A DNA stretch of 64,000 nt, taken from contig CAVUDW010000003.1 of assembly GCA_963740355.1 (NCBI GenBank), positions 1,248,001 through 1,312,000 of the forward strand. Direction: 5' to 3'. The stretch comes from an uncultured Gemmatimonadaceae bacterium. Its GTDB lineage: Bacteria > Gemmatimonadota > Gemmatimonadetes > Gemmatimonadales > Gemmatimonadaceae. The position numbers and the translations under genes are program-made. Numbering within the stretch: the stretch's first letter is position 1; the number at the start of each line of letters is the position of its first letter. Positions 6,158 through 21,372 of the stretch are shown piece after piece. A model generated the notes under the pieces. It did not search any database, was not told the origin of the DNA, and was given only the letters and a program-made list of their open reading frames with translations.

Positions 6158-6684
6158 GGTGCCCTCGTCGGCGTGATGGTCCTGGTCGAATCACCCATTG
6201 CAATGCTTTCCTGACGGCTGATACCGAATTCGTCGATCGAGAAGACGACGCGACGTGGTTCGATACTGGCCACGCGCATGCGACCGAGCGGCTGCCCGAC
6301 GCGTACGCGGTACTGCTCCTTCGTCTGTCGGTCGCGGAAAATTGCGATCGACTGCGAACCCGCCTGGCTGTGTGCAGCGTAGGCGATGCCGACCAGGGAG
6401 AGGTCGGCGATGGTGGGGCGAAGCACCCCGGTGGTTGCCAGCGACACGAATGGGTCGCGGCGTCCAGCGGCTTCGTAGGCGAACGTTTCGCGGCGATAGG
6501 AGAGCTGCTCCTGTCGAGCGACGGAGTCACGCTTCGCGGCCGTCATCGGTGCCGCGCCATCGCGACCCTTCGGTGCAGGCTCAGCGCGAGCGATGGTCTG
6601 CTGTGCTGCGAGCGGCGTCACGAGAGGAGCCGCGGCGACGAGCAGGCCGACGAGTGCGAGAACGCGGGTGGGCGCGTGCTTCAC
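6154..6684 (-). CDS. pilP: PilP-like pilus assembly protein
   Basis: Signal peptide, GRRDPF motif, LSLVGI...YRVRVGQPLG; lies between pilO and pilQ with 4-bp overlaps. Confidence 0.7.
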   Translation of the reverse strand: MKHAPTRVLALVGLLVAAAPLVTPLAAQQTIARAEPAPKGRDGAAPMTAAKRDSVARQEQLSYRRETFAYEAAGRRDPFVSLATTGVLRPTIADLSLVGIAYAAHSQAGSQSIAIFRDRQTKEQYRVRVGQPLGRMRVASIEPRRVVFSIDEFGISRQESIAMGDSTRTITPTRAP

Positions 6685-7325
6685 GGGGTGGTACCTCCAC
6701 GACGTGACGTCGAGACGGGCTCACCGCCGCGCGCGACATACGTCTCGATATCGAATTCCGTCTGGATCGGCGCTTCGGACGCCGGCATGCGACGACGGGT
6801 GCCGGTGCCATACTGCGGCGCGCCCGGGCCATCGGCGATCTTCATCTTCAGCACCATCGGCGTCACGATGCGTGGCAGGCTGCCAACGTTCGTGAGGAAC
6901 TCGGTCATGCTGTTGTAGCCGCCCTTGACGATCAGGCGATACCGATGTGCGTCGTAGTTCTCGCCGCCGCTCGACACGGGCTGCGGCTGTACGCTGGCGA
7001 TGTCGAGCCCAACGCGGCGCGCCGAGTTCGAGACCTGCTCGAGCAACCCTGGCACCTCGTTGACCGTCGGCACGAGCTGACGCATCACGGCGAGGTTTTC
7101 GGAGTAGCGCGCGGCATCTTCCTTCAGCTGTCGGAGGTTGCCGGCCTTCAGCTCGTTGGCGGCCTTCGCGTTGGCCGATGCCAGTGCGTCCACGTGAGCG
7201 GCCTGCTCCGTGATCGTCTCGGACTTCGGCGTGAAGACGTACATGTAGAACAGGACGCTGAGGCCGACGGCGAAGAGGATGACGGCCAGTAGGGACTGTT
7301 CGCGCTTGGTGAATGAGTTCAGCAT
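6681..7325 (-). CDS. pilO: Type IVa pilus biogenesis protein PilO
   Basis: N-terminal TM helix, coiled coil, LVPTVNEVPGLLEQV and GGYNSMTEFLTNVGSLPRIV motifs; operon position. Confidence 0.9.
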   Translation of the reverse strand: MLNSFTKREQSLLAVILFAVGLSVLFYMYVFTPKSETITEQAAHVDALASANAKAANELKAGNLRQLKEDAARYSENLAVMRQLVPTVNEVPGLLEQVSNSARRVGLDIASVQPQPVSSGGENYDAHRYRLIVKGGYNSMTEFLTNVGSLPRIVTPMVLKMKIADGPGAPQYGTGTRRRMPASEAPIQTEFDIETYVARGGEPVSTSRRGGTTP

Positions 7326-7326
7326 G

Positions 7327-8079
7327 TCAGCGCACCGACAAGGTGATCGGGACCGTCGTGACGGCCGCCGGGTCCGGCTTCTGGTATTGCACGTCGAGCG
7401 TGAATTCGGTGACTTCGCGAGCGTCGATCAGCATGACGTTCGACTTGTTGATCGTGACGTTCTGCACGAAGGGCGAGCTTTCGAGCACGCGCATGAAGCG
7501 CGTCAGGGCCTGGATGTCGACGGTGTTGCCGACGATCTGGAACGTGACCGCCGGTTCGGCGACAGGCTTGGCCTTGGCCGCGGAGTCTGCCTTGTGCGTG
7601 GTGTCGCGCTGCGGCAGCACGGGCTTGGCCGACAGCTGCGTGATCGTCGTGATCCAGGTGTACGGCGGCAAGGCTCGGCTGATTTCGTCGAGGATGTGCG
7701 GCCAGACGTACCGGCTGTCGTCGATCTGCTGGATGATGCCGAGCTGTGTGATCAGCGAATCACGACGTGCGATGACGGCCTTGCGCTCACCGATGACGGC
7801 CGAGAAGCGCGCGGAATCGGCGAGCTCCTGCTGGAGGTTCTCGTCGAGCTTGGCCAGCTGGCGATCCTGGTACCAGAAGCCACCGCCAACGCCGAGCACT
7901 GCCAGTGCGACGGCGATGCCGGCGACGGCGGTGATCATCGGGCGTGCCGGCGCTGGCGCGCTGTCGTCCATGGCGGCCTGCGAATCCTTGTTGCTCGAGA
8001 AGCGCGACAGGAACGCGAGGCCCCCGGACTTCTTCTTACCGGAGCCTTCGCCCGGGCTGAGCAGGTTGATTTCAATCAT
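7327..8079 (-). CDS. pilN: Type IVa pilus biogenesis protein PilN
   Basis: N-terminal INLL motif, TM helix, coiled coil, LDEISRALPPYTWIT, LESSPF. Confidence 0.92.
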   Translation of the reverse strand: MIEINLLSPGEGSGKKKSGGLAFLSRFSSNKDSQAAMDDSAPAPARPMITAVAGIAVALAVLGVGGGFWYQDRQLAKLDENLQQELADSARFSAVIGERKAVIARRDSLITQLGIIQQIDDSRYVWPHILDEISRALPPYTWITTITQLSAKPVLPQRDTTHKADSAAKAKPVAEPAVTFQIVGNTVDIQALTRFMRVLESSPFVQNVTINKSNVMLIDAREVTEFTLDVQYQKPDPAAVTTVPITLSVR

Positions 8080-8090
8080 GTGTCTGCTCC

Positions 8091-9140
8091 TCAGGCCACT
8101 TGGCGGAGTGCGAGACCGACCGGCAGCACCAGGAGCGACGCCACTTCATCGGCATTCACGTCGGCGAGTGCGCCATCGGCGACCGCCAGGTTGAGCAATG
8201 GGTTCACGGGCCGCACCGGGATGCGGAGCAGGCCAGCGAGGCGTTCCGCGAGACCCGTCACGCGTGCGCCGCCGCCGGCGATGTAGACCTCGCGGATCGG
8301 GCGCACGGTGCGCGACAGCGACTGGGCGACGGTGCCGGTCCGCTCGATTTCCTTCGCCAGTTCTTCACCGCGGCGATGCACGACGTTGTCGAGTGCCGGC
8401 GTGGTGGTGGCGGCGACGAGTGCCGAGTCGGCGTCGTCGGCGGTCATGCGTGCATCGCGCTGCAGGTCTTCGCGCAGGCGGCGAACGCCGACCGTGTTGT
8501 CACGGGTCAGGATCGGGATGCCGTCATCGAGCACGCTGACGTTGCAGACATCGTTGCCGATGTTGACCAGCGCCACCGTGCCGCGCATGGCATCGGGATG
8601 ATTGAATTCGAAGGCGTTGTGCAGGGCGAACGCCTCGACATCGACCACCTTCGGGTCGACGCCGGCATCCCGCAGCAGCTGCACACGCGCATCAATGAGG
8701 TCGCGCTTGGCGACAGCCAGCAGCACCGACATCTCGGCTCCTTCCCCGTCGGGATCGAGCACCTGATAGTCGAGTGCGATGGAGCTGGTATCGAAGGGAA
8801 CGATCTGCTCGGCCTCCCACTGCATGGCCTCGCGCAGTTCGCTCATCTTGTTGCGGTCGATCACGACCTTGCGGACGATGACATTGCCACCGCCGACGGC
8901 GGCCACAATGTGTGCGCCTTTCGTCTCAGCCGATGCCGCCGCAAGTGCATTCTGCACTGCGAGGATCACGAGCGCGTGATCCATGACTTCGCCTTCGACG
9001 ATTGCGTCGGCGGGGACTGGTTCGACGACGACTCGTTGCAGTTCCGGAAGGCCTTTGCCGTGATCAATCACGGCAATCTTGACCAGTCCTGAACCGATAT
9101 CGAGCCCGATCGTGACCTTACGTCGCTTGAAGAACGCCAT
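8091..9140 (-). CDS. pilM: Type IVa pilus assembly protein PilM (actin-like)
   Basis: IGLDIGSGLVK, VDVEAFAL, ALVNIG, IAGGGA, VGLALR; start chosen at ATG 9140 (MAFFKRRK). Confidence 0.93.
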   Translation of the reverse strand: MAFFKRRKVTIGLDIGSGLVKIAVIDHGKGLPELQRVVVEPVPADAIVEGEVMDHALVILAVQNALAAASAETKGAHIVAAVGGGNVIVRKVVIDRNKMSELREAMQWEAEQIVPFDTSSIALDYQVLDPDGEGAEMSVLLAVAKRDLIDARVQLLRDAGVDPKVVDVEAFALHNAFEFNHPDAMRGTVALVNIGNDVCNVSVLDDGIPILTRDNTVGVRRLREDLQRDARMTADDADSALVAATTTPALDNVVHRRGEELAKEIERTGTVAQSLSRTVRPIREVYIAGGGARVTGLAERLAGLLRIPVRPVNPLLNLAVADGALADVNADEVASLLVLPVGLALRQVA

Positions 9141-9312
9141 CGGATTTGGGGCCAGGTGTGACGAGACCCGAACAGGGTCACCGGGGTGGGCGGTGAGCAC
9201 GGCACCGGAGCACGAGACGTCGCTCTGAAATGCCTTCGACAGGTGGGTCGAATTGCACACAGGGAACGAATGGCGGGCGAATAGGTAACGTCGGCGGCAC
9301 TGTGCACCGGAG

Positions 9313-10245
9313 TCAGAAGGGACTCAGATGTTTCCAGGTCGCGGTTGGACCAGGACTTGTCACACGTTCCACCGCACGTCGTATTGCGCACGCGTCGTAC
9401 TGAACTCGGTCGCCCGGACCGAGCCCTGATTGCCCTCCACCCGCATCGCCAGTGAGCACCGCGCCGGTCACGTCGAGTCGACCGCCGGCGGGCTGCACGG
9501 ACCCCCGTGCGATGAGCACTCCCGAGAGTCGAAGGTCGGCCTCGATCCGGGCATCTGAACCGAACACGACCATTCCGACGATCCGTAACGGCTGCCTGAT
9601 TCGATCTCGGGTCAGCCGGTAGGCGCCGACGAGCGAATCGCGCACGGTGTCGGGATCCACGGCCGGGAAGGCCGAGGAGTCGAGCCGAGTCGGGAAAGGC
9701 GTGGTTCGGGTCGGAGCGACGGTGCCCGGTGGTCGGCAGGTCCGTTCCGGGCCTGTGGGCAGCGGAACCTCGACCGTGGCTGCCGGATCGAGGAGCCAGC
9801 TGGAGACTCCTGTGAGTGCCGCCACAGGGATGTCGATCGGGCTGACGAGGGGAATGACGGTCCGCCGGTCGGACCGCCCCGACACGGCCGGCACGCCGCT
9901 CCGCTGATCTCCGAGGCCGCGGGCGACAAGCGTTTCCCAGCTGCTCCGTCCGAGCTGCGCCGACCACCGGCCACGTCCTGCGCCTCCGCCCCCGATTCGA
10001 AGCGACGTACCGGGAGCATCGAGCGTGTGCCAGGCACCCTCGCCGACCTGTTCCAATGCCAGGAATCGCGCCGAGTCGGCGAGGGCATCGGCGGTGGCGT
10101 GTGCTCGCTCGAGCGCCACGGATCGTGGGCCGGCGGCCGCCACACGCCAGAGCGTGATCGTGCAGATCCCCACGACGGCCGAGATGACGACGGCGAGCAG
10201 GAGTGCGCTTCCGGCGCGCCGGTGAGGGTCAGCGACTTCCGACAT
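9313..10245 (-). CDS. PilX-like minor pilin
   Basis: Class III signal RRAG|SALLLAVVISAVVG lacking Glu5, as in PilX; start at ATG 10245 overlaps the end of the upstream gene. Confidence 0.65.
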   Translation of the reverse strand: MSEVADPHRRAGSALLLAVVISAVVGICTITLWRVAAAGPRSVALERAHATADALADSARFLALEQVGEGAWHTLDAPGTSLRIGGGGAGRGRWSAQLGRSSWETLVARGLGDQRSGVPAVSGRSDRRTVIPLVSPIDIPVAALTGVSSWLLDPAATVEVPLPTGPERTCRPPGTVAPTRTTPFPTRLDSSAFPAVDPDTVRDSLVGAYRLTRDRIRQPLRIVGMVVFGSDARIEADLRLSGVLIARGSVQPAGGRLDVTGAVLTGDAGGGQSGLGPGDRVQYDACAIRRAVERVTSPGPTATWKHLSPF

Positions 10246-11107
10246 TGATCCGGACCGAGTCGACGAAACTGCCGAAGCGTGCATGTCGTGGCGCGCGGAG
10301 CTGCGCGACCACGGTTCGTGCCTGGGCGAGTGTGCTGTCGGCGAGTCGAGTGCCTCTGGCATCGAACGCGCTGACCACGAACCCACCGCCGTCGCTCGAG
10401 GTGGGGGCCGAGAGGGGCGCGTAGAGCGGTTGCGAGGCAGCGAAGGCGTTGGTGGACGTATCCCAGGTCGATTGCGAGAGCGACCATTGCCCATCACTGC
10501 TTCGCACGAGCGACCATCGTTCGCGTTGCAGCACACGAATCACGGTGCCGACCATCGTCGGTGGCAGCGTGTCACTGATGATCACGCGCTGACCGGCGGT
10601 CCCCGGCATCGGCGCCAACGAATCGCCACAGCTACCGCTCGCACTGCCGACGGCGCGCACGGACAAGCTGCGCCAGGTCGCGGACTGCGGGTGCCAGTAA
10701 CGGAGTTCATCATCGATGCTGACGGCGCGAGGCAGGACGGCGGCCCAGGGGAGCGTGTCGTCGCTTGCTGCGGACGCCGGCGCGAGCAGCACGACGGTGT
10801 CGGCGCGGACCCGGCATGCGCTGGTGACGCCGATGGTGGACATCAGGTCGAGCACCGAGTCATGCACTGACCGCAGGTCACCAGCCTGCGGATCTGCGTT
10901 CGCCACATGTCGCGAAAGGGTTTGCAGTGCGTCGCTGATCCCGGCTGCCCGGGTGTCGATCGTGCTGAGCTTCGTGAGCCCACCGACGGTGCGTCGTGCG
11001 CTGAGTGCGCCAATGCTCACGACGACCAGTGTGAGTATCAACGACACCAGCAATTCCGCGAGCGAGAATCCGCCGCGTGTGCGCTCGATCTCGTGCCGGC
11101 GGCGCAT
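10229..11107 (-). CDS. PilW-like minor pilin (prepilin N-methylation domain)
   Basis: RTRGG|FSLAELLVSLILTLVVVSIG; ATG 11107 is coupled (TGATG) to the upstream stop. Confidence 0.8.
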   Translation of the reverse strand: MRRRHEIERTRGGFSLAELLVSLILTLVVVSIGALSARRTVGGLTKLSTIDTRAAGISDALQTLSRHVANADPQAGDLRSVHDSVLDLMSTIGVTSACRVRADTVVLLAPASAASDDTLPWAAVLPRAVSIDDELRYWHPQSATWRSLSVRAVGSASGSCGDSLAPMPGTAGQRVIISDTLPPTMVGTVIRVLQRERWSLVRSSDGQWSLSQSTWDTSTNAFAASQPLYAPLSAPTSSDGGGFVVSAFDARGTRLADSTLAQARTVVAQLRAPRHARFGSFVDSVRINVGSR

Positions 11108-11460
11108 CAGTCGCACCAGCGGGTACGGCTGAGCTGCACCGAGTCGGCTCGTGCGCTACTCGAGAGCGAAACGCTCGCGCGGGAGCCATGGCCAGTTCGA
11201 AGCGTGTTCAGTGCAATCAGCCAGCGCGGCTCCCTGACGCTGCGAGCGATTGCGCTGGTGTCACATGGCAGCGCGTCGAGATCGGCGAGCGCCCGCTCTG
11301 CGCGGTGCTGTGCGGCCCGCTCGAAGGCGGCATTGCCCAGCGCGCGTTCGGCGGCCGCAGTGGCACCGATGCCCCATGCCGCGGTGGCGCTGAGCAGGAC
11401 GAGCGCGAGGAGAACCTCGCAAAGCGAATTGCCCGCGCGGGCGGTGTTGGCAGGTGACAT
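11107..11460 (-). CDS. PilV-like minor pilin
   Basis: ARAG|NSLCEVLLALVLLSATAA prepilin-like N-terminus with Glu5; short; precedes the pilW/X-like genes. Alternative start at 11502. Confidence 0.65.
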   Translation of the reverse strand: MSPANTARAGNSLCEVLLALVLLSATAAWGIGATAAAERALGNAAFERAAQHRAERALADLDALPCDTSAIARSVREPRWLIALNTLRTGHGSRASVSLSSSARADSVQLSRTRWCD

Positions 11461-11584
11461 CGAGCGCTCCGGATGAGGATGCGCCGATGGTACCGCCGTC
11501 ATTCAGTGATGCGTGAGGCAAAAACGTGCGCACATCATCAACACCACGCGAGACCTTCCCACCAAGCAGCCGGCGGCTGGGGCC

Positions 11585-12745
11585 CTACCCTGCCGCGATC
11601 GGCAGCAGGAGATGCACGGCCGTGCCGCCTTCACGCGAGCCATCGATCCAGATCGTGCCTCTCGCATCGAAGACGGTGCGTCGGATGGTGGCGAGTGTCA
11701 CGCCGAGCGGATCGCCGGGACGAGAGATCGCGAACGCATCGAAGGCACGCTGCTGATCGGCGGCAGCGGGTGTAGCGCCAGCATCAGTGATCACCAGCGA
11801 CAGCAGTTCTGCCCCTGGTTGTGCGCGTTGCACCCAGGTGCGCAACGAATCATCCGAGGCGCGTGGCACGATGGTGAGCCGGGAGTCACCCGTGCGGCGC
11901 ACTGGTGTTTCCTCGACACTGGAGCGGAAGATCCGCGAGACATGCAGCGTCACTTCGCGATCAGCGGGTGATGCCATGCGTGCCAGCAACAACAGCTCGC
12001 GAAGGTGATCGCGCAGACGCGCCCGATCGACCAGCACCAGCCCTCGTTCGGTCTCGAAGATCGCGTTGATGCCCTCGGCGTCCGCCGCAGGGAGTGCGGC
12101 GAGGACGCCGCGAATCTCTGCTACGATATCAACCGGCTCGAATGCGGCGGGAATCGGGGCCGTGACTCGGCGCAGGGCGCGCGTCGTATCGTCGAGCGAA
12201 GCCAGTGCATCGGTGGCCGCGGCGGAAACATGCTCGCCGCCCAGCGCGGCGCGCAGCGTCACCACGGCGCGATCGGCGGCGGCGGCGGCATCGTTCCCCA
12301 GCTGGGCGAGCAGGTCATTCGTCTCACGCTCGGCCGTGCGAAGCGCGGCGCGCGCGCCGGCGTCGGCGAATGCGGATGCCAGCGGAATGAGTGCACTGTC
12401 ACCGGTTGCGGTGGGGAGTCCGGCCACACCCACCGTTTGCACTTGGCGCTCGGCGTCCTGTGCGAGGGTGGCTGCATGTCGGCGCAACCATCGCTCGACA
12501 ACGAAGGAGAGGATGCCGACCAGCGCCACAGTGACCAGCGCGAAGACGCCGCCGACCGCGAGTGCGACGAAGGCCGGTGGCACGTAACGCGGCAGGAAGA
12601 AGACGATTCCGGCGCCGACCAGCAATGTGGCGGCGATTGGCCATGCGAGCGCGTCCTGCAAGGCTCGGCGTTCCGGCGGGGTTCGAACGGTGCGATCGGG
12701 TCGCGGCGTCATTGGAGGAGTCACGCGCGGAAACGTGAGCGACAA
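11585..12745 (-). CDS. Membrane protein with degenerate histidine kinase (HisKA/HATPase-like) fold
   Basis: Two TM helices; C-terminus resembles HATPase (ITDAG, AFDAF, GVTLATIRRTV, GTIWIDG, GGTAVHLLLP), but H-box and N-box residues are substituted. Confidence 0.7.
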   Translation of the reverse strand: MSLTFPRVTPPMTPRPDRTVRTPPERRALQDALAWPIAATLLVGAGIVFFLPRYVPPAFVALAVGGVFALVTVALVGILSFVVERWLRRHAATLAQDAERQVQTVGVAGLPTATGDSALIPLASAFADAGARAALRTAERETNDLLAQLGNDAAAAADRAVVTLRAALGGEHVSAAATDALASLDDTTRALRRVTAPIPAAFEPVDIVAEIRGVLAALPAADAEGINAIFETERGLVLVDRARLRDHLRELLLLARMASPADREVTLHVSRIFRSSVEETPVRRTGDSRLTIVPRASDDSLRTWVQRAQPGAELLSLVITDAGATPAAADQQRAFDAFAISRPGDPLGVTLATIRRTVFDARGTIWIDGSREGGTAVHLLLPIAAG

Positions 12746-12874
12746 GAGGCCGTGCGCAAGGCGCGGACAGAAAGCCGGGCGCTCACGCCGGGCAGGTGGC
12801 GCGTGATGGCTGGGGACGGCGGATGTCGAGGATCGAACATTGGCGGGCCACGCGGAGCGATGGCGCGCGCGGCG

Positions 12875-13285
12875 TCACCAGCAGGACGGCGTGCCGTCCG
12901 GAACACCTGCAGGCATGCCGGTCGGGCGCGGCGCGGCACCTACGAAGACGCCACAGGTCTGGCTGCCGGGGATCACCAGCGTCGCATTCCAACCCGTCGT
13001 TCCCGCCGGTGCACCCGCCAGCGTGATGAGGAGCGACGTGTTGCCCGGACTCGGCGTGAAGTGCAGCGCGGCCGTGTCGGCAAGATTCCCGTATCGACCA
13101 TTGTTCGAATAGAAGGACTCTTGCTGCGTGGCCAGGTTATGGATGTCGGCCAGGCCGGCGGTGCGCGACGCGCGCTGCTTGGTGTTCGCGTACTTCGGGA
13201 TCGCGAGCGTTGCGAGGATCCCGATGACGACGACGACAATCAGCAGCTCGATGATCGTGAAGCCGTGCCGCTTTGCGACTGCCAT
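12875..13285 (-). CDS. Type IV pilin, divergent B-type copy
   Basis: KRHG|FTIIELLIVVVVIGILATLAIPKY; C-terminal Cys pair ending CW; GGAG RBS before ATG 13285. Confidence 0.9.
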   Translation of the reverse strand: MAVAKRHGFTIIELLIVVVVIGILATLAIPKYANTKQRASRTAGLADIHNLATQQESFYSNNGRYGNLADTAALHFTPSPGNTSLLITLAGAPAGTTGWNATLVIPGSQTCGVFVGAAPRPTGMPAGVPDGTPSCW

Positions 13286-13411
13286 AACACTCCTGGACCA
13301 ACTTCCGGGGGAACACGCGCAGCGGGTGAACGACCGCCGAGGAGTGTCGGGAGGGCACGTCGCGTGCTGAAGCGCCGTGTCCGCCTTCGACGTCTCAACC
13401 CTGAAAAGCGT

Positions 13412-13443
13412 CACGGCCCGGCGAATGGGGGCGCCGGGCCGTG
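13412..13443 (-). terminator. Stem-loop terminator after pilin 13471-13878
   Basis: CACGGCCCGGCG/CGCCGGGCCGTG 12-bp stem followed by CTTTTC on the minus strand. Confidence 0.7.
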
Positions 13444-13470
13444 CGGTCCATCAGGAATGCCGTCTGGCTG

Positions 13471-13878
13471 TTACCAGCAGACCGGCACACCCGACGGAGT
13501 CGTAGCAGGCATACCAGTCGGCGCCGAGGCGCTGCCGTGGTAGATGCCGCACTTCTGTGCGCCTGGGATCGTGATCAGTGCGCTCCAGCCGGTGGTCGAG
13601 GCGACGAGCGTGAGGCCCGTGTTTCCGGTCGACGGCGTGAAGTTCATCTTGCCGGCGGCGCTGCCCGTGTCGGCGATCGCCGCGTAGCGGTTGCTGTCGG
13701 CGTAGAAGCCTTCCTGCGAGGTGGCGAGGTTGCGCATGTCGGCGATGCCGGCGGCGCGGCTCGCACGCTGCTTCGTATTGGAGAACTTCGGGATGGCGAC
13801 CGCCGCCAGAATGCCGATGATGACGACGACGATCAGGAGTTCGATCAGAGTGAAGCCCTTCTTGTTCGTGCGTTCCAT
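13471..13878 (-). CDS. pilA: Type IVa major pilin (A-type copy 4)
   Basis: KKG|FTLIELLIVVVIIGILAAVAIPKF; 135 aa; C-terminal Cys pair ending VPVCW. Confidence 0.92.
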   Translation of the reverse strand: MERTNKKGFTLIELLIVVVIIGILAAVAIPKFSNTKQRASRAAGIADMRNLATSQEGFYADSNRYAAIADTGSAAGKMNFTPSTGNTGLTLVASTTGWSALITIPGAQKCGIYHGSASAPTGMPATTPSGVPVCW

Positions 13879-13958
13879 GGGAGTAGGCGGTTCGGGTCAA
13901 CATGCTGATGGCCATCGCGACATGCGCGGTCATCGTGCTTGCGTCGCCATGAGATAAG

Positions 13959-13973
13959 GCAAACTGGCAGCCA
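13959..13973 (-). promoter_or_regulatory. Sigma54 (-24/-12) promoter
   Basis: Minus strand TGGCTGCCAGTTTGC (GG-N10-GC), about 80 bp upstream of the pilin ATG; pilR is in the locus. Confidence 0.75.
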
Positions 13974-13990
13974 CAACCATTGAATGCACG

Positions 13991-14003
13991 TAACGTGTTG
14001 ATT
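13991..14003 (-). promoter_or_regulatory. IHF-like binding site
   Basis: Minus strand AATCAACACGTTA matches WATCAANNNNTTR, 18 bp upstream of the sigma54 element. Confidence 0.55.
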
Positions 14004-14238
14004 CACATGGTGTTAGGCAGACCCGAGGAACGCGTGACTGGTATGTCAGGCATTGCATCTTACGACAGGTCCGGCATTTCGCATTGCTGGTGAGCGCCGA
14101 TTCATGCGAGGGGCGCCGAGGTTGGCGCACGGTGGCCGACGTCGTAAGAACAGCGGCTGACATATCGCACGGGAGCAGGTGGCGCAGGCCGCGGCGCTAC
14201 ATGGTACCAGTGTATCACAAAAACGTATCACAAAAACA

Positions 14239-14274
14239 CGATGGCCCCGTGCGCAGGAACGCACGGGGCCATCG
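14239..14274 (-). terminator. Rho-independent terminator after pilin 14311-14718
   Basis: CGATGGCCCCGTGCG/CGCACGGGGCCATCG 15-bp stem followed by TGTTTTT on the minus strand. Confidence 0.8.
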
Positions 14275-14310
14275 AGATGGTCGAACGGAATCACATCACG
14301 AGCACGCGAT

Positions 14311-14718
14311 TTACCAGCAAACCGGGACACCGCTCGGATTCGTCGCCGGCATGCCGGTTGGACGCGCGGCGGTGCCGCTGAAGATGCCGCACTTCTGCGC
14401 GCCCGGAATCGTCACCAGTCCGCTCCAGCCTGTGGTCGTCGCAACCAGCGTCAGCGCCGTGTTTCCCGTCGACGGCGTGAAGTTCATCTTGCCGGCAGCT
14501 GTACCCGTATCGGCGATCGCGGCGTAGCGGCTCGAGTCGGCGAAGAAGCCTTCCTGTGCCGTGGCCAGGTTTCGCATGTCGGCGATGCCGGCCGAGCGTG
14601 AGGCTCGCTGCTTCGTGTTGGAGAACTTCGGGATCGCGACGGCGGCAAGAATGCCGATGATGACGACCACGATCAACAGTTCGATGAGCGTGAAGCCGAG
14701 CTTGGGTGAGCGCTTCAT
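14311..14718 (-). CDS. pilA: Type IVa major pilin (A-type copy 3)
   Basis: MKRSPKLG|FTLIELLIVVVIIGILAAVAIPKF; 135 aa. Confidence 0.92.
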   Translation of the reverse strand: MKRSPKLGFTLIELLIVVVIIGILAAVAIPKFSNTKQRASRSAGIADMRNLATAQEGFFADSSRYAAIADTGTAAGKMNFTPSTGNTALTLVATTTGWSGLVTIPGAQKCGIFSGTAARPTGMPATNPSGVPVCW

Positions 14719-14800
14719 GGGGGTCCGGTGGGGTCGGTGTCTTACGCAGTGCAGCGACGCGAAGCGCATCGCCGCATGGCGCAGTTGATTCCGAACTATC

Positions 14801-14815
14801 GCAATGCGCCGGCCA
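14801..14815 (-). promoter_or_regulatory. Sigma54 (-24/-12) promoter
   Basis: Minus strand TGGCCGGCGCATTGC (GG-N10-GC). Confidence 0.75.
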
Positions 14816-14964
14816 GCCGGATTAGAATCGACAACACGTTGTCACACAATGACTTAGGGATTGCGTAACGACACCCGGTGGCCGCGCCACCGTTGCACCT
14901 TACGACGGATCCGGCATTTCGCGGCACGGATGTTTCCGGCCGCAGCGAGCAGCACCACCACACG

Positions 14965-15002
14965 ACGACGACCCGGCAGGCATCAGCCCACCGGGTCGTC
15001 GT
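14965..15002 (-). terminator. Stem-loop after pilin 15043-15450
   Basis: ACGACGACCCGG/CCGGGTCGTCGT 12-bp stem; no clear U-tract. Confidence 0.5.
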
Positions 15003-15042
15003 GCGAGCGACCGAAATCGCCCGGATCAGGTGTCGCGTCGGA

Positions 15043-15450
15043 TTACCAGCAGACTGGCACGCCGTCCGGGTTCGTCGCCGGCATACCCGTCGGGCGCGCA
15101 GCCGTACCAGAGAAGATGCCGCACTTCTGGTTGCCAGGAATCGTCACCTCACCGCTCCAACCCGTCGCCGTGGCGACCAGCGTCAGGTTCGTGTTTCCGT
15201 TCGACGGCGTGAAATTCATCTTGCCAGCACCAGTACCGGTGTCCGCGATGGCGGCATACCGGCTGGAGTCGGCGAAGAAGCCTTCCTGGGCGGTGGCGAG
15301 GTTGCGCATGTCGGCGATACCAGCCGAACGCGAAGCACGCTGCTTGGTGTTCGAGAACTTCGGAATCGCTACCGCGGCGAGGATGCCGATGATCACAACC
15401 ACGATCAAGAGTTCGATCAGGGTGAAGCCCTTCTTCATGCTGCGTCGCAT
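15043..15450 (-). CDS. pilA: Type IVa major pilin (A-type copy 2)
   Basis: MRRSMKKG|FTLIELL; 135 aa; GGAGG RBS. Confidence 0.92.
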   Translation of the reverse strand: MRRSMKKGFTLIELLIVVVIIGILAAVAIPKFSNTKQRASRSAGIADMRNLATAQEGFFADSSRYAAIADTGTGAGKMNFTPSNGNTNLTLVATATGWSGEVTIPGNQKCGIFSGTAARPTGMPATNPDGVPVCW

Positions 15451-15526
15451 GGATGTCCTCCGTCAGAGTTGGTTGACTGTTGCCGCCCAGGCTGCAGAGG
15501 GCAGCCGGACTCGTCGGGGGAGTTGA

Positions 15527-15541
15527 GCAAGAGATTTGCCG
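15527..15541 (-). promoter_or_regulatory. Sigma54 (-24/-12) promoter
   Basis: Minus strand CGGCAAATCTCTTGC (GG-N10-GC). Confidence 0.7.
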
Positions 15542-15665
15542 AGCTTTCCTGATGCGACAACCGTCTGGAACACAATCACTTGCGCGTTTAGCGACCTCGA
15601 GTACACGACCGTTTGCTCTCGCATCCTGCATGATCACTTGCAAATCGCCGCACTAGCCAGAACGA

Positions 15666-15701
15666 CACTGGCCCGGCGTGCCGAAGCACGCCGGGCCAGT
15701 G
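15666..15701 (-). terminator. Stem-loop terminator after pilin 15733-16140
   Basis: CACTGGCCCGGCGTGC/GCACGCCGGGCCAGTG 16-bp stem; the loop reads TTCG (UUCG tetraloop) on the minus strand. Confidence 0.75.
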
Positions 15702-15732
15702 GTCAGCCGACCGAAGTCAGCTGGTCAAGCGA

Positions 15733-16140
15733 TTACCAGCAAACCGGGACGCCGTCCGGGTTCGTTGCCGGCATGCCCGTCGGGCGTGCGGCGGTGCCGC
15801 TGAAGATACCGCACTTCTGAGCGCCCGGGATCGTCACCATGCCGCTCCAGCCCGTCGCCGTGGCGACCAGCGTCAGGGCGGTGTTTCCGTTCGACGGCGT
15901 GAAGTTCATCTTGCCAGTGCCCGTGCCGGTGTCCGCGATGGCGGCATAACGGCTGGAGTCGGCGAAGAAGCCTTCCTGCGCGGTGGCGAGGTTACGCATG
16001 TCGGCGATACCGGCCGAACGCGAAGCGCGCTGCTTGGTGTTCGAGAACTTCGGGATCGCGACGGCAGCCAGGATGCCGATGATGACCACGACGATCAAGA
16101 GTTCGATCAGGGTGAAGCCCTTCTTCATGCTGCGTCGCAT
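15733..16140 (-). CDS. pilA: Type IVa major pilin (A-type copy 1)
   Basis: MRRSMKKG|FTLIELL; 135 aa; differs from the neighbouring copy at 4 residues. Confidence 0.92.
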   Translation of the reverse strand: MRRSMKKGFTLIELLIVVVIIGILAAVAIPKFSNTKQRASRSAGIADMRNLATAQEGFFADSSRYAAIADTGTGTGKMNFTPSNGNTALTLVATATGWSGMVTIPGAQKCGIFSGTAARPTGMPATNPDGVPVCW

Positions 16141-16208
16141 GCACAACTCCATAGTGGGAGACCGGTCACCGGTGTGGCACACTGCCAGCCGGCTCGGCCA
16201 CCATTAAG

Positions 16209-16223
16209 GCAAGGGCTTTGCCG
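16209..16223 (-). promoter_or_regulatory. Sigma54 (-24/-12) promoter
   Basis: Minus strand CGGCAAAGCCCTTGC (GG-N10-GC). Confidence 0.7.
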
Positions 16224-16369
16224 CGACCGTTGCAATCCGCAAAGTGTTGTCAAATAACGACTTGTGATTCGAGACACACGCCGGACTCGACCATGGCCCA
16301 CTGCTTTTCGCCACGCTCATGGCGTTCTGCGAATTCCAGCACCCCAGCCAAGCGTTTGCCGTCAGGCCC

Positions 16370-16795
16370 TCATGGCCAGCAGACCGGCACCCCATCCGGC
16401 GTCCCGCCAGGCATCCCGGTCGGCGCCGGAGCCGCACCGACGAAAATCCCGCAGGAACTGCTTCCGGGCACCGCCAGCACGGCATTCCACCCGCTCGACC
16501 CCACGGGCGCGCCCGCCAGCGTGATCGCCAGCCCGGTATTGCCGCGACTGAGCGAGAACCGCATCACCGCAGTATCGGTCAGGGCGCCATACCGATCGCT
16601 GTCGGCGTAGAAGCCTTCCTGGGCGGTCGCGAGGTTGCGGAGGTCGGCAATACCGGCCGACCGGTTCGCTCGACGCTTGGTGTTGTTGAACTTCGGGATC
16701 GCAATGGCGGCCAGGATCCCGATGATGACGACGACGATCAGCAGTTCGATGAGCGTGAATCCCGACACGCGCTGCCGTTGACGCGATGCGCACAT
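16370..16795 (-). CDS. Type IV pilin, divergent B-type copy
   Basis: RVSG|FTLIELLIVVVIIGILAAIAIPKF; ends VPVCWP; GGAGG RBS before ATG 16795. Confidence 0.9.
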   Translation of the reverse strand: MCASRQRQRVSGFTLIELLIVVVIIGILAAIAIPKFNNTKRRANRSAGIADLRNLATAQEGFYADSDRYGALTDTAVMRFSLSRGNTGLAITLAGAPVGSSGWNAVLAVPGSSSCGIFVGAAPAPTGMPGGTPDGVPVCWP

Positions 16796-16933
16796 GGCGC
16801 CCTCCTCTCCAGGGTGAACGGCGCCATCGCCTGATACGTGGCGCACGCCCCCAGAGTCACACCCGCGTCATTCCGCGACCTACCCAATCCAGCGCGGATA
16901 TCATCCATCGATTGCCACGCGCACTGGAAGAGA

Positions 16934-18310
16934 TCAGGCGTCCGTCTCGTAGCGCGCCAGCTTCCGGTACAGCGTGCTGGCATCGATCCCCAGCGTGGAC
17001 GCCGCGCGAGACTTGTTGCCCCCTTCGCTCTGCAACACCCACATGATGTACGCCCGCTCGATCGCGTCGAGTGTCGGGTTCACGATCGCACGCTCCGCCA
17101 CCAGCGGCTCCACTCGACGGGCCGTCACACGCTCCGGAAGCGCCTCGACATCGATCGCGTCTCCCGTCGTGAGGATCACCGCGCGCTCCATCGCGTTCTC
17201 CAACTCGCGCACATTGCCCGGCCAGTCGTAGGCCTGCATCGCATCCAGCGCGTCGCTGGTCAACGTGAGGGGATTCTCGTGGCGCGTGCCGCCCACCCGT
17301 GCAAGGAACTTCGTCGCCAACACCGAGATGTCGTCGCGACGATCACGCAGCGGTGGCAGGTGAATCGCGATCACGTTGAGGCGATAGAACAGGTCACCGC
17401 GAAAGCTGCCGCGCTTGATCTCGTCCTCGAGGTCACGATTGGTCGCAGCGATCATGCGCACATCGATCGGCTGTGACTCCGTGCCACCAACCGGAATCAC
17501 TTCCCGCTGCTGCAGCACACGCAACAACTTCACCTGCGTGGCAGGAGTCGTCTCACCGATTTCGTCGAGGAAGAACGTGCCCTTGTTGGCCGCGGTGAAG
17601 AGCCCAGCGCGGTCCTTCACGGCGCCGGTGAACGACCCCTTCACATGCCCGAACAGTTCACTCTCGAGCAGTGATTCCGGCAGCGCACCACAGTTGATCG
17701 ACATGAAGCTGTTGTCGCTGCGCGGCGAGAGGTCGTGCAGGTAGCGTGCAATCACTTCCTTGCCCGTCCCCGACTCGCCGGTGATCAGCACCGTCGAATC
17801 CGTCGGCGCCACCGTCTCCACCATCTCGAGCACCTTGAGCCAACTGCGACTGTTGCCCGTCGGCCGCGCTCCGGCCGTGCTGCGATCACGCCGCTGGATC
17901 TCCTGCTTCAGCGTCACGTTCTCGATCTTCAGCTGCCGGTGCTCCGCCGCGCGACGCAGGATCGCCACCAGTTCGTCGTTGCGAAACGGCTTCTGGATGT
18001 AGTAGAACGCCCCTTCATTCACCGCCTGGATCGCACTCTGCATCGAGGCCTGCGCGGTCATCAGCACCACCGGCAGCTGTGGATCGCGGGCCTTCACTGC
18101 GGCCAGCACCTCGATGCCGGAAATTGTCGGCATGCGGATGTCGGACAGCACGATGTCGGGCGTCGATGTCTCGAGCGCATCGAGTCCCGCCTTGCCGCCA
18201 AGCGCCGTGATCGGTGTGAATCCCTCGTTCTTGAGGAGGATTCGCAACGTCTCGAGGATGCCGGCTTCGTCATCGATGACGAGGACGGTCGGCGAGGATC
18301 GATTACTCAC
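16934..18310 (-). CDS. pilR: Sigma54-dependent response regulator, PilR-like (NtrC family)
   Basis: Receiver domain, GESGTGKE, ESELFGH, GSFTGA, FLDEIGE, WPGNVRELEN and Fis-type HTH; adjacent to the pilins. Confidence 0.9.
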   Translation of the reverse strand: MSNRSSPTVLVIDDEAGILETLRILLKNEGFTPITALGGKAGLDALETSTPDIVLSDIRMPTISGIEVLAAVKARDPQLPVVLMTAQASMQSAIQAVNEGAFYYIQKPFRNDELVAILRRAAEHRQLKIENVTLKQEIQRRDRSTAGARPTGNSRSWLKVLEMVETVAPTDSTVLITGESGTGKEVIARYLHDLSPRSDNSFMSINCGALPESLLESELFGHVKGSFTGAVKDRAGLFTAANKGTFFLDEIGETTPATQVKLLRVLQQREVIPVGGTESQPIDVRMIAATNRDLEDEIKRGSFRGDLFYRLNVIAIHLPPLRDRRDDISVLATKFLARVGGTRHENPLTLTSDALDAMQAYDWPGNVRELENAMERAVILTTGDAIDVEALPERVTARRVEPLVAERAIVNPTLDAIERAYIMWVLQSEGGNKSRAASTLGIDASTLYRKLARYETDA

Positions 18311-20007
18311 GCAGGAGCTCCGTTCTCTGACTGGGTGCGGGGAAGGATGATCGTGAAGCGGGTGCCGCTGCCCGGTGACGAGTCAACCAGCACGACGCCA
18401 CGGTGCGCGTCGATGGCGCGATGGACCACCGGAAGGCCGAGTCCGCTTCCGCGCGGCTTGGTAGTGAAGAATGGGGTGAAGATCCGATCTCGAACATCGG
18501 CCGGCATCCCGGGACCATTGTCCTCGATCACCAGCCGCACGGCGCCGGACTCTGGCAACACGCCGCCTGGCACCGTATCCGGGGTCGCCGGCCGCAGCGA
18601 CACACGCACGACGCCGCCCTCGCCCAGCGCCTGCGCCGCATTCAACACCAGGTTGAACACCGCCCGGTGCAGCAGGTCCGAGTCGCCGTCCACCATCTGG
18701 ACCTCCGGCTCCGCATCGAAAACCAGTTCGGTGGTCGGGAGACGATCCGGGTGCGCCGCGACGAGGTTCATCGTATCGCGCACCAGACCAGCCAGGTCGA
18801 GTGGGGTGACCCGCGTCACACGCACACGCGCGAAGTCGAGGAATTCGGTCAGGAGTCGCGCCAGTCGATCACTCTCCCGCACCACCAGTCGCGTCAGTGA
18901 TCCGGTGTCCTCGTCGGCCGAAGGCATGCGGCCCAGCTGCTCCACCGCACTGCGGATCGACGCCAGCGGATTCTTGATCTCGTGTGCGAGGCTGGCCGCC
19001 AGCTCCGACACCGCCTCCAGCTGGCCGGCGCGAACGTGCAGGTCCTCGAGCCGCTTCTGGTCCGATATGTCCGAGAAGATCGCCGTCGCGCTGCCGGCGT
19101 CGTTCTCTGCCTCGCCCCTGAGGTAGGTCACCGTGATGCCGAGCTGCAGCTCGCGCCCGTCCACCGTCACCAGCGCCTCGGCACGTGAGGTGCGCGTCCG
19201 AGTCCGGATCGAACGTTCCAGTGCCAGCACCAGCCCAGGCGCCTCCCGCTCGAGCTCGGTACGCACCTGCCGCCCGATATACGGTGTCAGTTCGAGTCCC
19301 AGCAACGCGCTGGCCGCCTGATTGGCGTACTGCAGCGTGCCGCGGGCGTCGAGCGTCAGGACCCCGCTTCGAATGTTGTCGAGCACGTCCGACGCCTGCA
19401 GGCGTTCTCGCCGCAACGTTTCCGCGAGCAGTTCCGACCCCGACCCCACCTCGCGCAGCCTCGCGCTGACATACCCCGTCCCGACGGCCACAGTGGCGAA
19501 GTTGCCCATCTGCAGCCAGGCGGTCGAGTCGAGCACGAAATCGCGCGTGACGACGATGTCCGTGAAGTAGAACGCGCACACCAGCAGTGCCGCGATCAGG
19601 CCGCCGCTGCGCGGAATGAGCAGCGCCGAGTAGGCGATGACGAGGATGTAGAGGGCCGCGAATTGCGATTCGCTGCCGTTGGTGACGTGCACCAGCGCCG
19701 TGATGAGGGCGATATCCGTGACGGCTTGCCAGAGCAGGAACCCGCGACTCGCCGGCGCGCGGTACATTTCCACCGCAATGAGCGAAATTCCCGTGACGGC
19801 GAATGCCATGATGGCGGCAGCCTGTACCAGCCTGACGGCGGTGGCAGTCTGCCCGACCGCCAACTGCGGCAACACCACGATCAACGCCACCGCGAGTACG
19901 GTGCGGATCGCGTACACCCACAACAGCGCGCGCCGCGGATCGAGAATGGCCCGTAGGCGCGCGATCGGTGTCAGCGCCTGCGCCGTATTGCGTGGTGAAT
20001 TCTGCAT
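18307..20007 (-). CDS. pilS: Sensor histidine kinase, PilS-like (multi-TM, PAS, HisKA, HATPase)
   Basis: About 6 TM helices with DIALITALVHVTNGSES; LAHEIKNPL; DNGPG; FFTTK; GSGLGL; overlaps the pilR start. Start is uncertain (ATG 20007). Confidence 0.88.
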   Translation of the reverse strand: MQNSPRNTAQALTPIARLRAILDPRRALLWVYAIRTVLAVALIVVLPQLAVGQTATAVRLVQAAAIMAFAVTGISLIAVEMYRAPASRGFLLWQAVTDIALITALVHVTNGSESQFAALYILVIAYSALLIPRSGGLIAALLVCAFYFTDIVVTRDFVLDSTAWLQMGNFATVAVGTGYVSARLREVGSGSELLAETLRRERLQASDVLDNIRSGVLTLDARGTLQYANQAASALLGLELTPYIGRQVRTELEREAPGLVLALERSIRTRTRTSRAEALVTVDGRELQLGITVTYLRGEAENDAGSATAIFSDISDQKRLEDLHVRAGQLEAVSELAASLAHEIKNPLASIRSAVEQLGRMPSADEDTGSLTRLVVRESDRLARLLTEFLDFARVRVTRVTPLDLAGLVRDTMNLVAAHPDRLPTTELVFDAEPEVQMVDGDSDLLHRAVFNLVLNAAQALGEGGVVRVSLRPATPDTVPGGVLPESGAVRLVIEDNGPGMPADVRDRIFTPFFTTKPRGSGLGLPVVHRAIDAHRGVVLVDSSPGSGTRFTIILPRTQSENGAPA

Positions 20008-20055
20008 GGATGCCGACAATGTGACACCGTCGTCACCGGCACAGGGAGTGGCGGC

Positions 20056-21372
20056 GTGAACCTTCCCGAAGCGGGCGTGGGGCTGCGGCTCCTCGGTGTG
20101 CTGTTTCTGGTGCTGATGAATGCCTTCTTCGTGGCGGCAGAGTTCGCGCTGGTCGGCTCGCGGCGCAGCCGGATCGACCAGCTCGCGCAGGAAGGTGTCA
20201 GCGGCGCGAAGGCGGTGCAGGACGCGCTCACGAACCTCGATCGCTACATCTCGGGCACGCAGCTCGGCATCACGCTGGCATCGCTGGCGCTGGGATGGAT
20301 CGGCGAACCCGCGTTGGCGACCCTCGTCGATCGCGGACTGGCCCTGATCGGCGTACATGCACAGCCGGGTATCGCGCACACCACGGCAGGGGTGGCGACC
20401 GCATTCCTCGTGATCACGTTCCTGCACATCGTGCTTGGCGAGCTGGCCCCGAAGTCGATCGCGCTGGTCGCTCCCGAGCGCGTGAGCATGTACCTCGCGC
20501 GTCCGCTGATGCTCTTCTCACGCGTGATGAGCCCGTTCATCACGATGCTCAACTCGGTGGCGAACGCACTGCTGAAGGTCGTGGGTGTGGATCCAGCGGG
20601 CGCTGGCCACTCGAGCGTGCATAGCGCCGACGAACTGCGCCTGCTGGTGATGCAGGCCCGCGCGCAGGGCACGCTGAATGAAACCGACAGCATGATGCTG
20701 GCCGGTGTCTTCGACTTTCATGAAAAGAAGGCGCGCGACGTGATGCGCCCTCGCACCGAAGTCGCCGCCATTCCGCTCGATGCCACCGAGGCCGAGGTCT
20801 GGGCGATCCTCCGATCGGAGCGGTATTCGCGTTATCCGGTGATCGGCGACTCGCTGGATGACATCGTCGGTGTGTTCTTGGCCAAGGACCTCTGGTTGCA
20901 CCAGGGTCCGTTCACGATCAAGCAGTTCATACGCGCCCCGCTCTTCATTCCCGATTCGCGGCCGGCCGAGCGGGTGCTGGACGACTTGCGCAAGACGCGG
21001 GCGCACATGGCAGTGGTACTGGACGAATACGGCGGCACCGCCGGCATCATCACGATGGAAGACCTGGTCGAGGAAGTGGTGGGTGACATCGCCGATGAAT
21101 ACGATGCCGCAGCCCGCGAAGCCCTCGAGACCGACGGCGTGCTGGAGCTCGCGGGATCGTTGTCGTTGATCGACGTGCGCTCGGACTACAAGGTGCTCGT
21201 CCCCGAGGGGGACTGGACCACTCTTGGCGGCTATGTGTTCAATGCGCTGGGGCGCCTGCCGCGAGTGGGTGACCGAGTGACAATTCCCGGCTGCGAATTG
21301 GAAGTGGTGGCCATGGATGGCCGCCGCGTCGCAGCCGTTCGCGTGAACCGGGTGCCCGTGGCCGGTCGTTAG
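20056..21372 (+). CDS. HlyC/CorC (CNNM-CBS-CorC) family membrane protein
   Basis: NAFFVAAEFALV, QLGITLASLALG, GELAPKSIA, YSRYPV, VLDEYGGTAGIITMEDLVEEVVG. Confidence 0.95.
   Translation: MNLPEAGVGLRLLGVLFLVLMNAFFVAAEFALVGSRRSRIDQLAQEGVSGAKAVQDALTNLDRYISGTQLGITLASLALGWIGEPALATLVDRGLALIGVHAQPGIAHTTAGVATAFLVITFLHIVLGELAPKSIALVAPERVSMYLARPLMLFSRVMSPFITMLNSVANALLKVVGVDPAGAGHSSVHSADELRLLVMQARAQGTLNETDSMMLAGVFDFHEKKARDVMRPRTEVAAIPLDATEAEVWAILRSERYSRYPVIGDSLDDIVGVFLAKDLWLHQGPFTIKQFIRAPLFIPDSRPAERVLDDLRKTRAHMAVVLDEYGGTAGIITMEDLVEEVVGDIADEYDAAAREALETDGVLELAGSLSLIDVRSDYKVLVPEGDWTTLGGYVFNALGRLPRVGDRVTIPGCELEVVAMDGRRVAAVRVNRVPVAGR

Follow-up and report, generated by a model that had tools for sequence, protein, structure and literature searches.

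Tandem Type IV Pilin Genes with Individual Predicted Sigma-54 Promoters and Concertedly Evolving Coding Regions in an Uncultured Gemmatimonadaceae Bacterium

RESULTS

Six prepilin genes at one locus

We analyzed a 64,000-nucleotide stretch (the window) of the genome of an uncultured Gemmatimonadaceae bacterium (assembly GCA_963740355.1; 5 contigs, 5.4 Mb), at positions 1,248,001 to 1,312,000 of contig CAVUDW010000003.1, which carries a tandem array of type IV pilin genes. Six intact, co-oriented prepilin open reading frames (ORFs), all on the minus strand like the other window features described here, are flanked by pilS-pilR and by a kinase-like gene, minor pilin genes, and pilMNO(P)Q. In order of transcription they are B0 (positions 16370 to 16795; 141 amino acids [aa]), A1 (15733 to 16140), A2 (15043 to 15450), A3 (14311 to 14718), A4 (13471 to 13878), and B1 (12875 to 13285; 136 aa). 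The coding regions of the front A copies evolve in concert, and we consider below what such an array may be for.

All six prepilins have a short class III signal peptide, a cleavage site between G and F, E5, a hydrophobic N-terminal helix, and two C-terminal cysteines, and all matched the N_methyl family above its cutoff (TIGR02532 was matched in the four proteins tested). The Pfam family ComP_DUS remained below its cutoff for five of the six and was not used as evidence of DNA binding. The original prediction of six intact, co-oriented prepilins was thus borne out by the ORFs, the cleavage site, E5, and the cysteine pair. Its statement that every protein ends in a Cys loop followed by CW holds for the cysteines of all six, but B0 ends in CWP.

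The four central proteins are each 135 aa long (127 aa when mature), and the earlier counts of mature residue differences (4 for A1/A2, 6 for A1/A3, and 15 for A3/A4) were reproduced; A2 and A3 differ at 7 residues, and A4 differs from both A1 and A2 at 21. At the nucleotide level, the A copies differ at 43 to 85 of 381 nucleotides (nt), with pairwise dS values of 0.47 to 0.95 and dN/dS ratios of 0.04 to 0.16. Protein identities are 63 to 68% between A and B copies and 67% between B0 and B1. Mature residues 1 to 33 are the same in all four A copies, and every difference lies past residue 33, in the head domain. This shared N terminus makes co-assembly of the A isoforms plausible; mosaic pili are plausible as well.

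A4 is of the S46, Y105, H106 type and belongs to a distinct lineage found in the last A slot of related arrays (A-last). Eleven residues are diagnostic of this lineage and are retained in it (e.g., H106, present in 15 of 15 sequences, versus S106 in 22 of 22), and the four A copies are therefore better described as three plus one. In a nucleotide tree, B0 and B1 fell into separate position-specific groups; both are likely minor pilins. The B-A-A-A-A-B layout that had been proposed was accordingly correct in its order, whereas the two B genes do not form one class and the A genes are not uniform. The idea of a locus with multiple major pilins was likewise supported, although only four of the six proteins look like major pilins.

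An AlphaFold model of A1, built from an 85-sequence alignment, has a type IVa pilin fold (predicted local distance difference test score [pLDDT] of 90), with a helix at residues 3 to 54 and a head with a three-stranded antiparallel beta-sheet; C102 and C126 are invariant across the 85 sequences. The closest fold was PilA4 of Thermus thermophilus (6xxd; Foldseek E value, 6e-4; VIA Z, 9.5; root mean square deviation, 3.3; 108 aligned residues), followed by a mixture of major and minor type IVa pilins. By sequence, the closest solved relatives were the PilA proteins of Geobacter and Myxococcus.

Promoter cassettes and hairpins of the A genes

A predicted promoter cassette precedes each A gene, with a sigma-54 box 83 to 97 nt upstream of the start codon. 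The A1 cassette (16209 to 16330) comprises an enhancer pair (16301 to 16330), an integration host factor (IHF)-like element (16239 to 16264), and the sigma-54 box (16209 to 16223). The same three parts are predicted for A2 (cassette, 15527 to 15648; enhancer pair, 15619 to 15648; IHF-like element, 15557 to 15582; box, 15527 to 15541), A3 (14801 to 14922; enhancer, 14893 to 14922; IHF-like element, 14831 to 14856; box, 14801 to 14815), and A4 (13959 to 14082; enhancer pair, 14053 to 14082; IHF-like element, 13990 to 14015; box, 13959 to 13973). Across the genus, a sigma-54 box was found for 47 of 53 A copies and for none of 34 B copies; B0 and B1 of the window lack all parts of the cassette. 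No sigma-70 promoter was found in a scan for such promoters.

Two further features emerged when the promoters were aligned on their boxes: an IHF-like palindromic element, centered near -42, and paired sites of the GC-N5-GC type, near -107 and -88. Within two mismatches, an IHF consensus was matched in 33 of 50 promoters, compared with 1 of 50 segments further upstream and with a mean of 13 (maximum, 20) after shuffling. On the basis of these motifs, PilR and IHF would be expected to bind the cassettes. A three-part weight matrix, for which 43 promoters of other genomes served as the training set, ranked the promoters of A4, A1, A3, A2, and an orphan pilin gene first to fifth, in that order, among 5,030 boxes of the genome, with scores of 34 to 76 versus 10 for the next box. 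The orphan is a seventh A-type pilin gene (74% identity to A1; contig C2, 1418615 to 1419019; L053:6616-7020), which lies among unrelated genes and carries an A-type cassette and hairpin. Sigma-54 boxes at C2:182074 and C2:4378 (minus strand) share this IHF-like middle element but not the pilin enhancer; the former precedes a gene for what we take to be a protein resembling a flagellar rod subunit.

The enhancer consensus differs between slots and is kept within each slot while the spacers drift (18 promoters for A1, 9 for A2, and 17 for the last slot). Outside the regulatory motifs, the intergenic DNA of the array is divergent, as had been noted earlier. A3 has an enhancer of the last-slot type (90% identity to that of A4) ahead of a front-type coding sequence, a mismatch that suggests a hybrid unit generated by unequal crossing-over.

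Hairpins follow the A genes at 15666 to 15701 (A1; 16 bp, perfect, and possibly a terminator or mRNA stabilizer), 14965 to 15002 (A2), 14239 to 14274 (A3; with a T-run, resembling an intrinsic terminator), and 13412 to 13443 (A4). Their z values against base shuffles were -4.0 to -6.2, compared with -0.5 and -0.7 for B0 and B1, and the genus-wide medians by slot were -33 to -38 kcal/mol after A genes and -20 to -21 kcal/mol after B genes. Codon adaptation relative to 20 translation genes was 0.73 for A1, 0.71 for A4, 0.63 for A3, 0.61 for A2, 0.59 for B1, and 0.53 for B0 (genome median, 0.55; 95th percentile, 0.67). It is a rough measure, since pilN also scores 0.73, and is only suggestive with regard to the dominant subunit of the filament.

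Coding regions group by genome and promoters by slot

Front A copies paired by genome in the nucleotide tree (six pairs; support, 93 to 100), whereas the sequences of B0, B1, and A-last grouped largely by position. Of 36 genome pairs, 35 favored grouping by genome in quartets of A1 and A2 at synonymous third positions (497 versus 51 sites), as did all eight quartets that involve the window genome; the genome pairs share members, and the tests are not independent. The DNA upstream of A1 and A2 grouped by slot in 35 of the 36 pairs (549 versus 210 sites). Control quartets gave genome-versus-slot counts of 8 versus 64 pairs for A1/A-last, 36 versus 37 for B0/B1, and 2 versus 84 for B0/A1. Because these controls do not group by genome, the A1/A2 pattern is not due to codon bias across the genome. 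Coding regions that follow the genome, together with promoters that follow the slot, constitute concerted evolution.

The pattern recurs clearly in two other, independent genera. Coding sites grouped by genome and upstream sites by slot for G032/G034 (18:2 and 59:0, respectively) and for G148/G072 (40:1 and 16:6). In the closed genome G161, two copies have the same sequence from the start codon through a point shortly after the stop codon and are unrelated beyond these limits. Since the flanks group by slot, the duplication would predate the species split for most pairs. In G018, a last-slot promoter stands ahead of a front-type coding sequence, and A-last is thus sometimes replaced by the front type. 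These results support the homogenization that had been proposed; either gene conversion or unequal crossing-over may have produced it.

The slot specificity of the enhancers is also the starting point for the main rival of the interpretation that we prefer below, namely, regulated tuning of isoforms, in which the enhancers of different slots would answer different levels of activated PilR, or different activators, and the ratio of front to last subunits would set pilus properties. Conservation of the enhancer consensus within slots fits this proposal, as does the A-last protein, which retains its diagnostic residues and is not homogenized with A1. Moreover, PilA1 and PilA3 of Streptococcus sanguinis are reported not to be interchangeable despite 94% identity (PMC11121087). 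However, slot-specific motifs may reflect shared ancestry alone, and the pairing of a last-type promoter or enhancer with a front-type gene in G018 and at A3 suggests that promoter and isoform are only loosely coupled. We regard this alternative as unlikely.

Selection on the A copies

Between species, parsimony counts gave an omega of 0.13 for the front copies (28 sequences, with 88 of 127 sites invariant) and of 0.20 for the last copies (15 sequences); such counting underestimates multiple hits and ignores recombination. Five divergent or length-variant A copies were excluded from the front set, and of the 17 last-slot copies, 2 were excluded for length. Both values indicate purifying selection. 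A1 orthologues have a median identity of 95% to A1 of the window, compared with 89 to 97% for PilR and 43 to 51% for a neighboring minor pilin. At site 93, seven residues occur and replacements are about twice the neutral number (22 versus 11). This site covaries with site 101, which lies on the adjacent strand: R93 occurs with A101 in 16 of 16 cases, and K101 never occurs with R93. A basic residue is usually present at one of the two sites, and we therefore read the pattern at site 93 as charge compensation.

These data bear on the proposal that the copies are switchable surface variants, for example for evasion of phages, or more generally that they form a donor pool or a set of alternative variants by which antigens or receptors are varied against phages or predators. 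The confinement of all differences among A copies to the head domain, the recombination between copies, and the excess of replacements at site 93 could be taken in its favor. Against it stand the low overall omega values across copies from different species, the conservation of A1, and one A copy of G017 that is identical in protein sequence to A1, while sites 93 and 101 resemble a case of charge compensation. Furthermore, every A copy has a promoter and an N terminus; all six pilin genes of the window array are intact and co-oriented, with no silent truncated cassette or inverted copy among them; and no motif of four G-runs (G4) occurs on either strand of positions 12601 to 17000. Each copy has its own start, and the 67 distinct window ORFs run against Pfam (a subset, mostly filtered by codon position) showed neither a recombinase nor an invertase domain, in agreement with the original prediction. 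Homogenization also removes variation. Surface switching is unsupported, and between species antigenic variation is largely contradicted; we consider it highly improbable.

Distribution of the array

Each of the 19 further genomes of the genus that were searched had a match, and the nearest named loci belong to metagenome assemblies of Gemmatimonadaceae. Ten of these, together with the window genome, have a contiguous array, unbroken from pilR to the kinase-like gene, and all 11 arrays share the order B0, A(n), A-last, with B1 in 8 of the 11. A comparison of copy number among these arrays gave two A copies in 3 genomes, three in 6, and four in 2. The other assemblies of the genus break within the array, often inside an A gene. 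In a phylum-wide sample, at least two matches were recorded for 25 of 31 genomes of the same family, 62 of 76 of the same order, and 3 of the 18 genomes of other orders that gave a match, in counts that take in minor-pilin-like matches and depend on the threshold. Neighboring copies had protein identities of 88 to 100% in 18 of 26 genomes of other genera, chosen mostly for their adjacent matches. The window is thus at the upper end of a habit shared by the lineage. In G063, of the same family, 10 or 11 pilA-like copies are dispersed (L159 and other contigs) and not in tandem.

Variation in copy number would be expected if the array were subject to birth-and-death drift, with A1 as the working major pilin and the other copies redundant and conserved in appearance mainly through conversion from A1. 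A promoterless pilin head relic, truncated at its 5' end, lies between two intact A copies in G017 (L035:3602-3844; the sole case among 28 loci screened); G010 and G015 each have one divergent A copy without a sigma-54 box; and A1 has the best codon adaptation. On the other hand, no contiguous array has fewer than two A copies, the promoters of A2 and of the last slot, which lie beyond the reach of conversion, are nevertheless conserved, and the dN/dS ratios between the copies of the window genome are low at substantial dS. This explanation appears improbable to us.

The frequent breaks inside A genes in short-read assemblies of relatives might raise the suspicion of an assembly artefact. However, the copies of the window differ at many positions and are separated by unrelated spacers, and the layout recurs in the ten other contiguous arrays; an artefact therefore has a negligible probability. 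Six sequencing runs carry a small share of the words of the array, none of them half or more. Pieces of the array, gene-spacer junctions among them, have counterparts with 0 to 9 differences in DNA contigs of X2, X3, and X1 (possibly the source sample); none of these contigs spans the array. An RNA contig of X5, from one study covered at the level of contigs and found by way of A1, covers A1 alone (441 nt, 7 differences), with nothing else of that length within 17.3 kb at 94%, and it was not counted as evidence.

Neighboring genes

Upstream of the array lie genes for a PilS-like sensor kinase (18307 to 20427; Pfam 6TM_PilS, PAS, HisKA, and HATPase_c), whose true start is probably inside the ORF, and a PilR-like sigma-54 activator (16934 to 18310; Response_reg, Sigma54_activat, and HTH_8), the latter with the conservation in genus arrays given above. 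B0, which has no strong 3' hairpin, is directly downstream of pilR (spacer, 16796 to 16933). On the other side, a conserved membrane protein (11585 to 12745; the kinase-like gene) has a degenerate HATPase_c-like tail that is below the Pfam cutoff and no HisKA match; its identity in genus arrays is 60 to 68%, and it sits between the pilin array and the minor pilin genes genus-wide. Three putative core minor pilins follow (9313 to 11502), which from their position we take to be PilV/W/X-like; a weak N_methyl match was obtained only for 10229 to 11116, and the other two gave no informative family match. The pilM-pilN-pilO-(pilP)-pilQ genes (4112 to 9260) matched PilM_2, PilN, PilO, and Secretin, with only a faint match for PilP, and an 810-aa ORF right after pilQ (1676 to 4108) had no Pfam match above the cutoff.

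Elsewhere, the genome encodes rpoN, a prepilin peptidase, and one pilB above the cutoff with adjoining pilT and pilC. The TMTC-type glycosyltransferase family PF08409 had no match in the genome, although the control likewise gave none, and the PMT_2 matches lie away from the array.

DISCUSSION

A probable supply of pilin from parallel genes

We think it probable that the A genes are parallel PilR/sigma-54 units that feed one pool of pilin, with the front copies providing dosage, A4 providing a second subunit type, and B0 and B1 acting as minor pilins. Four PilA-type genes, each a separate unit in which a predicted PilR enhancer, an IHF-like site, and a predicted sigma-54 promoter precede the gene and a predicted terminator follows it, would be expressed in parallel into a common membrane pool, and their products would likely be co-assembled. 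A1 is the likely principal major pilin, and A1 to A3 would together serve dosage, a function that had been suggested beforehand and that is supported by the promoter ranking and by concerted evolution. The coding regions of the front copies would overwrite one another with the old promoter of each slot left in place, and the front subunits would thereby stay interchangeable. A4 appears to escape homogenization for the most part, retaining a slightly different head and contributing a second kind of subunit in the manner of PilE2 of S. sanguinis, and B0 and B1 may be expressed from elsewhere or by read-through. Across the genus, recombination keeps the front copies similar and their sequences change slowly; the most likely role of the array is thus to raise and adjust the supply of pilin and not to switch between surface variants.

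Several observations weigh against this interpretation. Among the five replicate pairs from other genera, the upstream DNA was uninformative for G161/G129 and ambiguous for G060/G154 (11 versus 13), and for G061/G164 it also grouped by genome, which fits a fresh duplication. In tests for conversion tracts, none of 12 in the window genome reached a P value of <0.05, and across all genomes 4 of 36 did, 1 of them after Bonferroni correction; A1 and A2 are, moreover, less similar to each other (88.7% DNA identity) than A1 is to its best orthologue (91.1%). Homogenization in this genome would therefore be old or patchy. Six of the 53 A copies in the genus have a poor sigma-54 box, A3 and A4 are without a clear Shine-Dalgarno sequence, and the two DNABII proteins, although they score best against the IHF models, are below the cutoffs of those models. 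Codon adaptation is modest for A2 and A3, and the last slot has a genus median of 0.59, so that some copies may be weakly used. The heads of the B proteins resemble the folds of both major and minor pilins (fold matches were obtained for the A1 model only), and the fold thus speaks for neither role. Finally, of two predicted major pilins in Legionella, one alone behaved as a major pilin (PMC13170364).

The array might also work as a pilus rheostat, in which a single PilS-PilR pair would switch on one to four pilin genes stepwise through slot-specific enhancers and add a distinct last-slot subunit, with conversion keeping the dosage copies compatible. We offer this mechanism tentatively, as a possibility and not an expectation; if true, a diderm would tune both pilin supply and filament composition.

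Type IV pili of Gram-negative bacteria are usually described with one major pilin gene (PMC11121087, PMC10191384). The present lineage is a natural series, with 1 to 4 copies, separate promoters, and closed genomes with twin copies, by which dosage could be separated from specialization. The ratio of minor to major pilins is reported to set pilus dynamics (PMC13249403), and copy number and promoter strength could therefore matter. The array consists of known parts arranged by known processes and is not a new mechanism.

Comparison with known systems

In Neisseria pilE/pilS, a single expression locus with an upstream G4 motif receives sequence from promoterless, 5'-truncated donors, with hypervariable exposed regions under diversifying selection, and in Moraxella, oppositely oriented pilin genes are inverted by an adjacent invertase. 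Both resemble the present array in having several pilin sequences per genome and recombination among them. The array differs from the former in its lack of silent truncated donors, of a single expression locus, and of a G4 motif, and in being under purifying selection; it differs from the latter in the common orientation of its six genes and in the absence of an invertase domain from the ORFs scanned.

Regulation has closer parallels. PilR and sigma-54 drive pilA in Pseudomonas and Myxococcus (PMC6058289, PMC6211767), and the pilS-pilR-pilA loci of Myxococcus xanthus and Pseudomonas aeruginosa share with the window both the synteny of the regulators and the sigma-54 box. At pilE of commensal Neisseria, an activator (Npa) site, an IHF site, and an RpoN box (PMC6528607) are found in the same order as the corresponding motifs of the A cassettes. 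Known pilSR-pilA systems drive one pilin gene, whereas here the unit of promoter, gene, and hairpin is present four times, in addition to the orphan.

More than one pilA-like gene is known from other diderms, including tandem pilA genes in Stigmatella aurantiaca, PilA1 to PilA3 in Xylella, and PilA1 and PilA2 in Legionella (PMC6060248, PMC3776727, PMC9956873, PMC13170364), and the tandem arrangement is called unusual in myxobacteria (PMC6060248). In those reports, as far as their accessible parts go, the paralogues differ in function and no homogenization is described; the front copies here are 95 to 97% identical and evolve in concert across the genus. A literature search in which subscription journals were mostly missing found no account of pilin arrays in Gemmatimonadota or of concerted evolution of intact pilA copies.

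Wang and Chen (2018) described long-lasting concerted evolution in prokaryotes for tuf, amo, hao, and fla and proposed dosage as its reason (PMC6053082). As in those families, which encode abundant subunits of complexes, paralogues here are closer than orthologues, also at synonymous sites. A fresh tandem duplication could not be excluded for fla (PMC6053082); for most pairs of the present study, slot-specific promoters argue against such an event. The main text of that article does not name pilin, which now joins the short list of prokaryotic genes that evolve in concert.

The closest known system is PilE1/PilE2 of S. sanguinis. This species has two or three homologous major pilin genes (PilE1/PilE2 or PilA1 to PilA3), variable in number between strains, more alike within a strain, and with one more divergent member (PMC11121087), and its major pilins form heteropolymers at a ratio of about 4:3 (PMC6497953). 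Tandem, full-length, homologous major pilin genes of variable number are common to both systems. S. sanguinis is a monoderm with its pil genes in one operon, whereas the lineage described here is diderm, with up to four A copies beside pilSR, each with its own predicted promoter cassette and hairpin.

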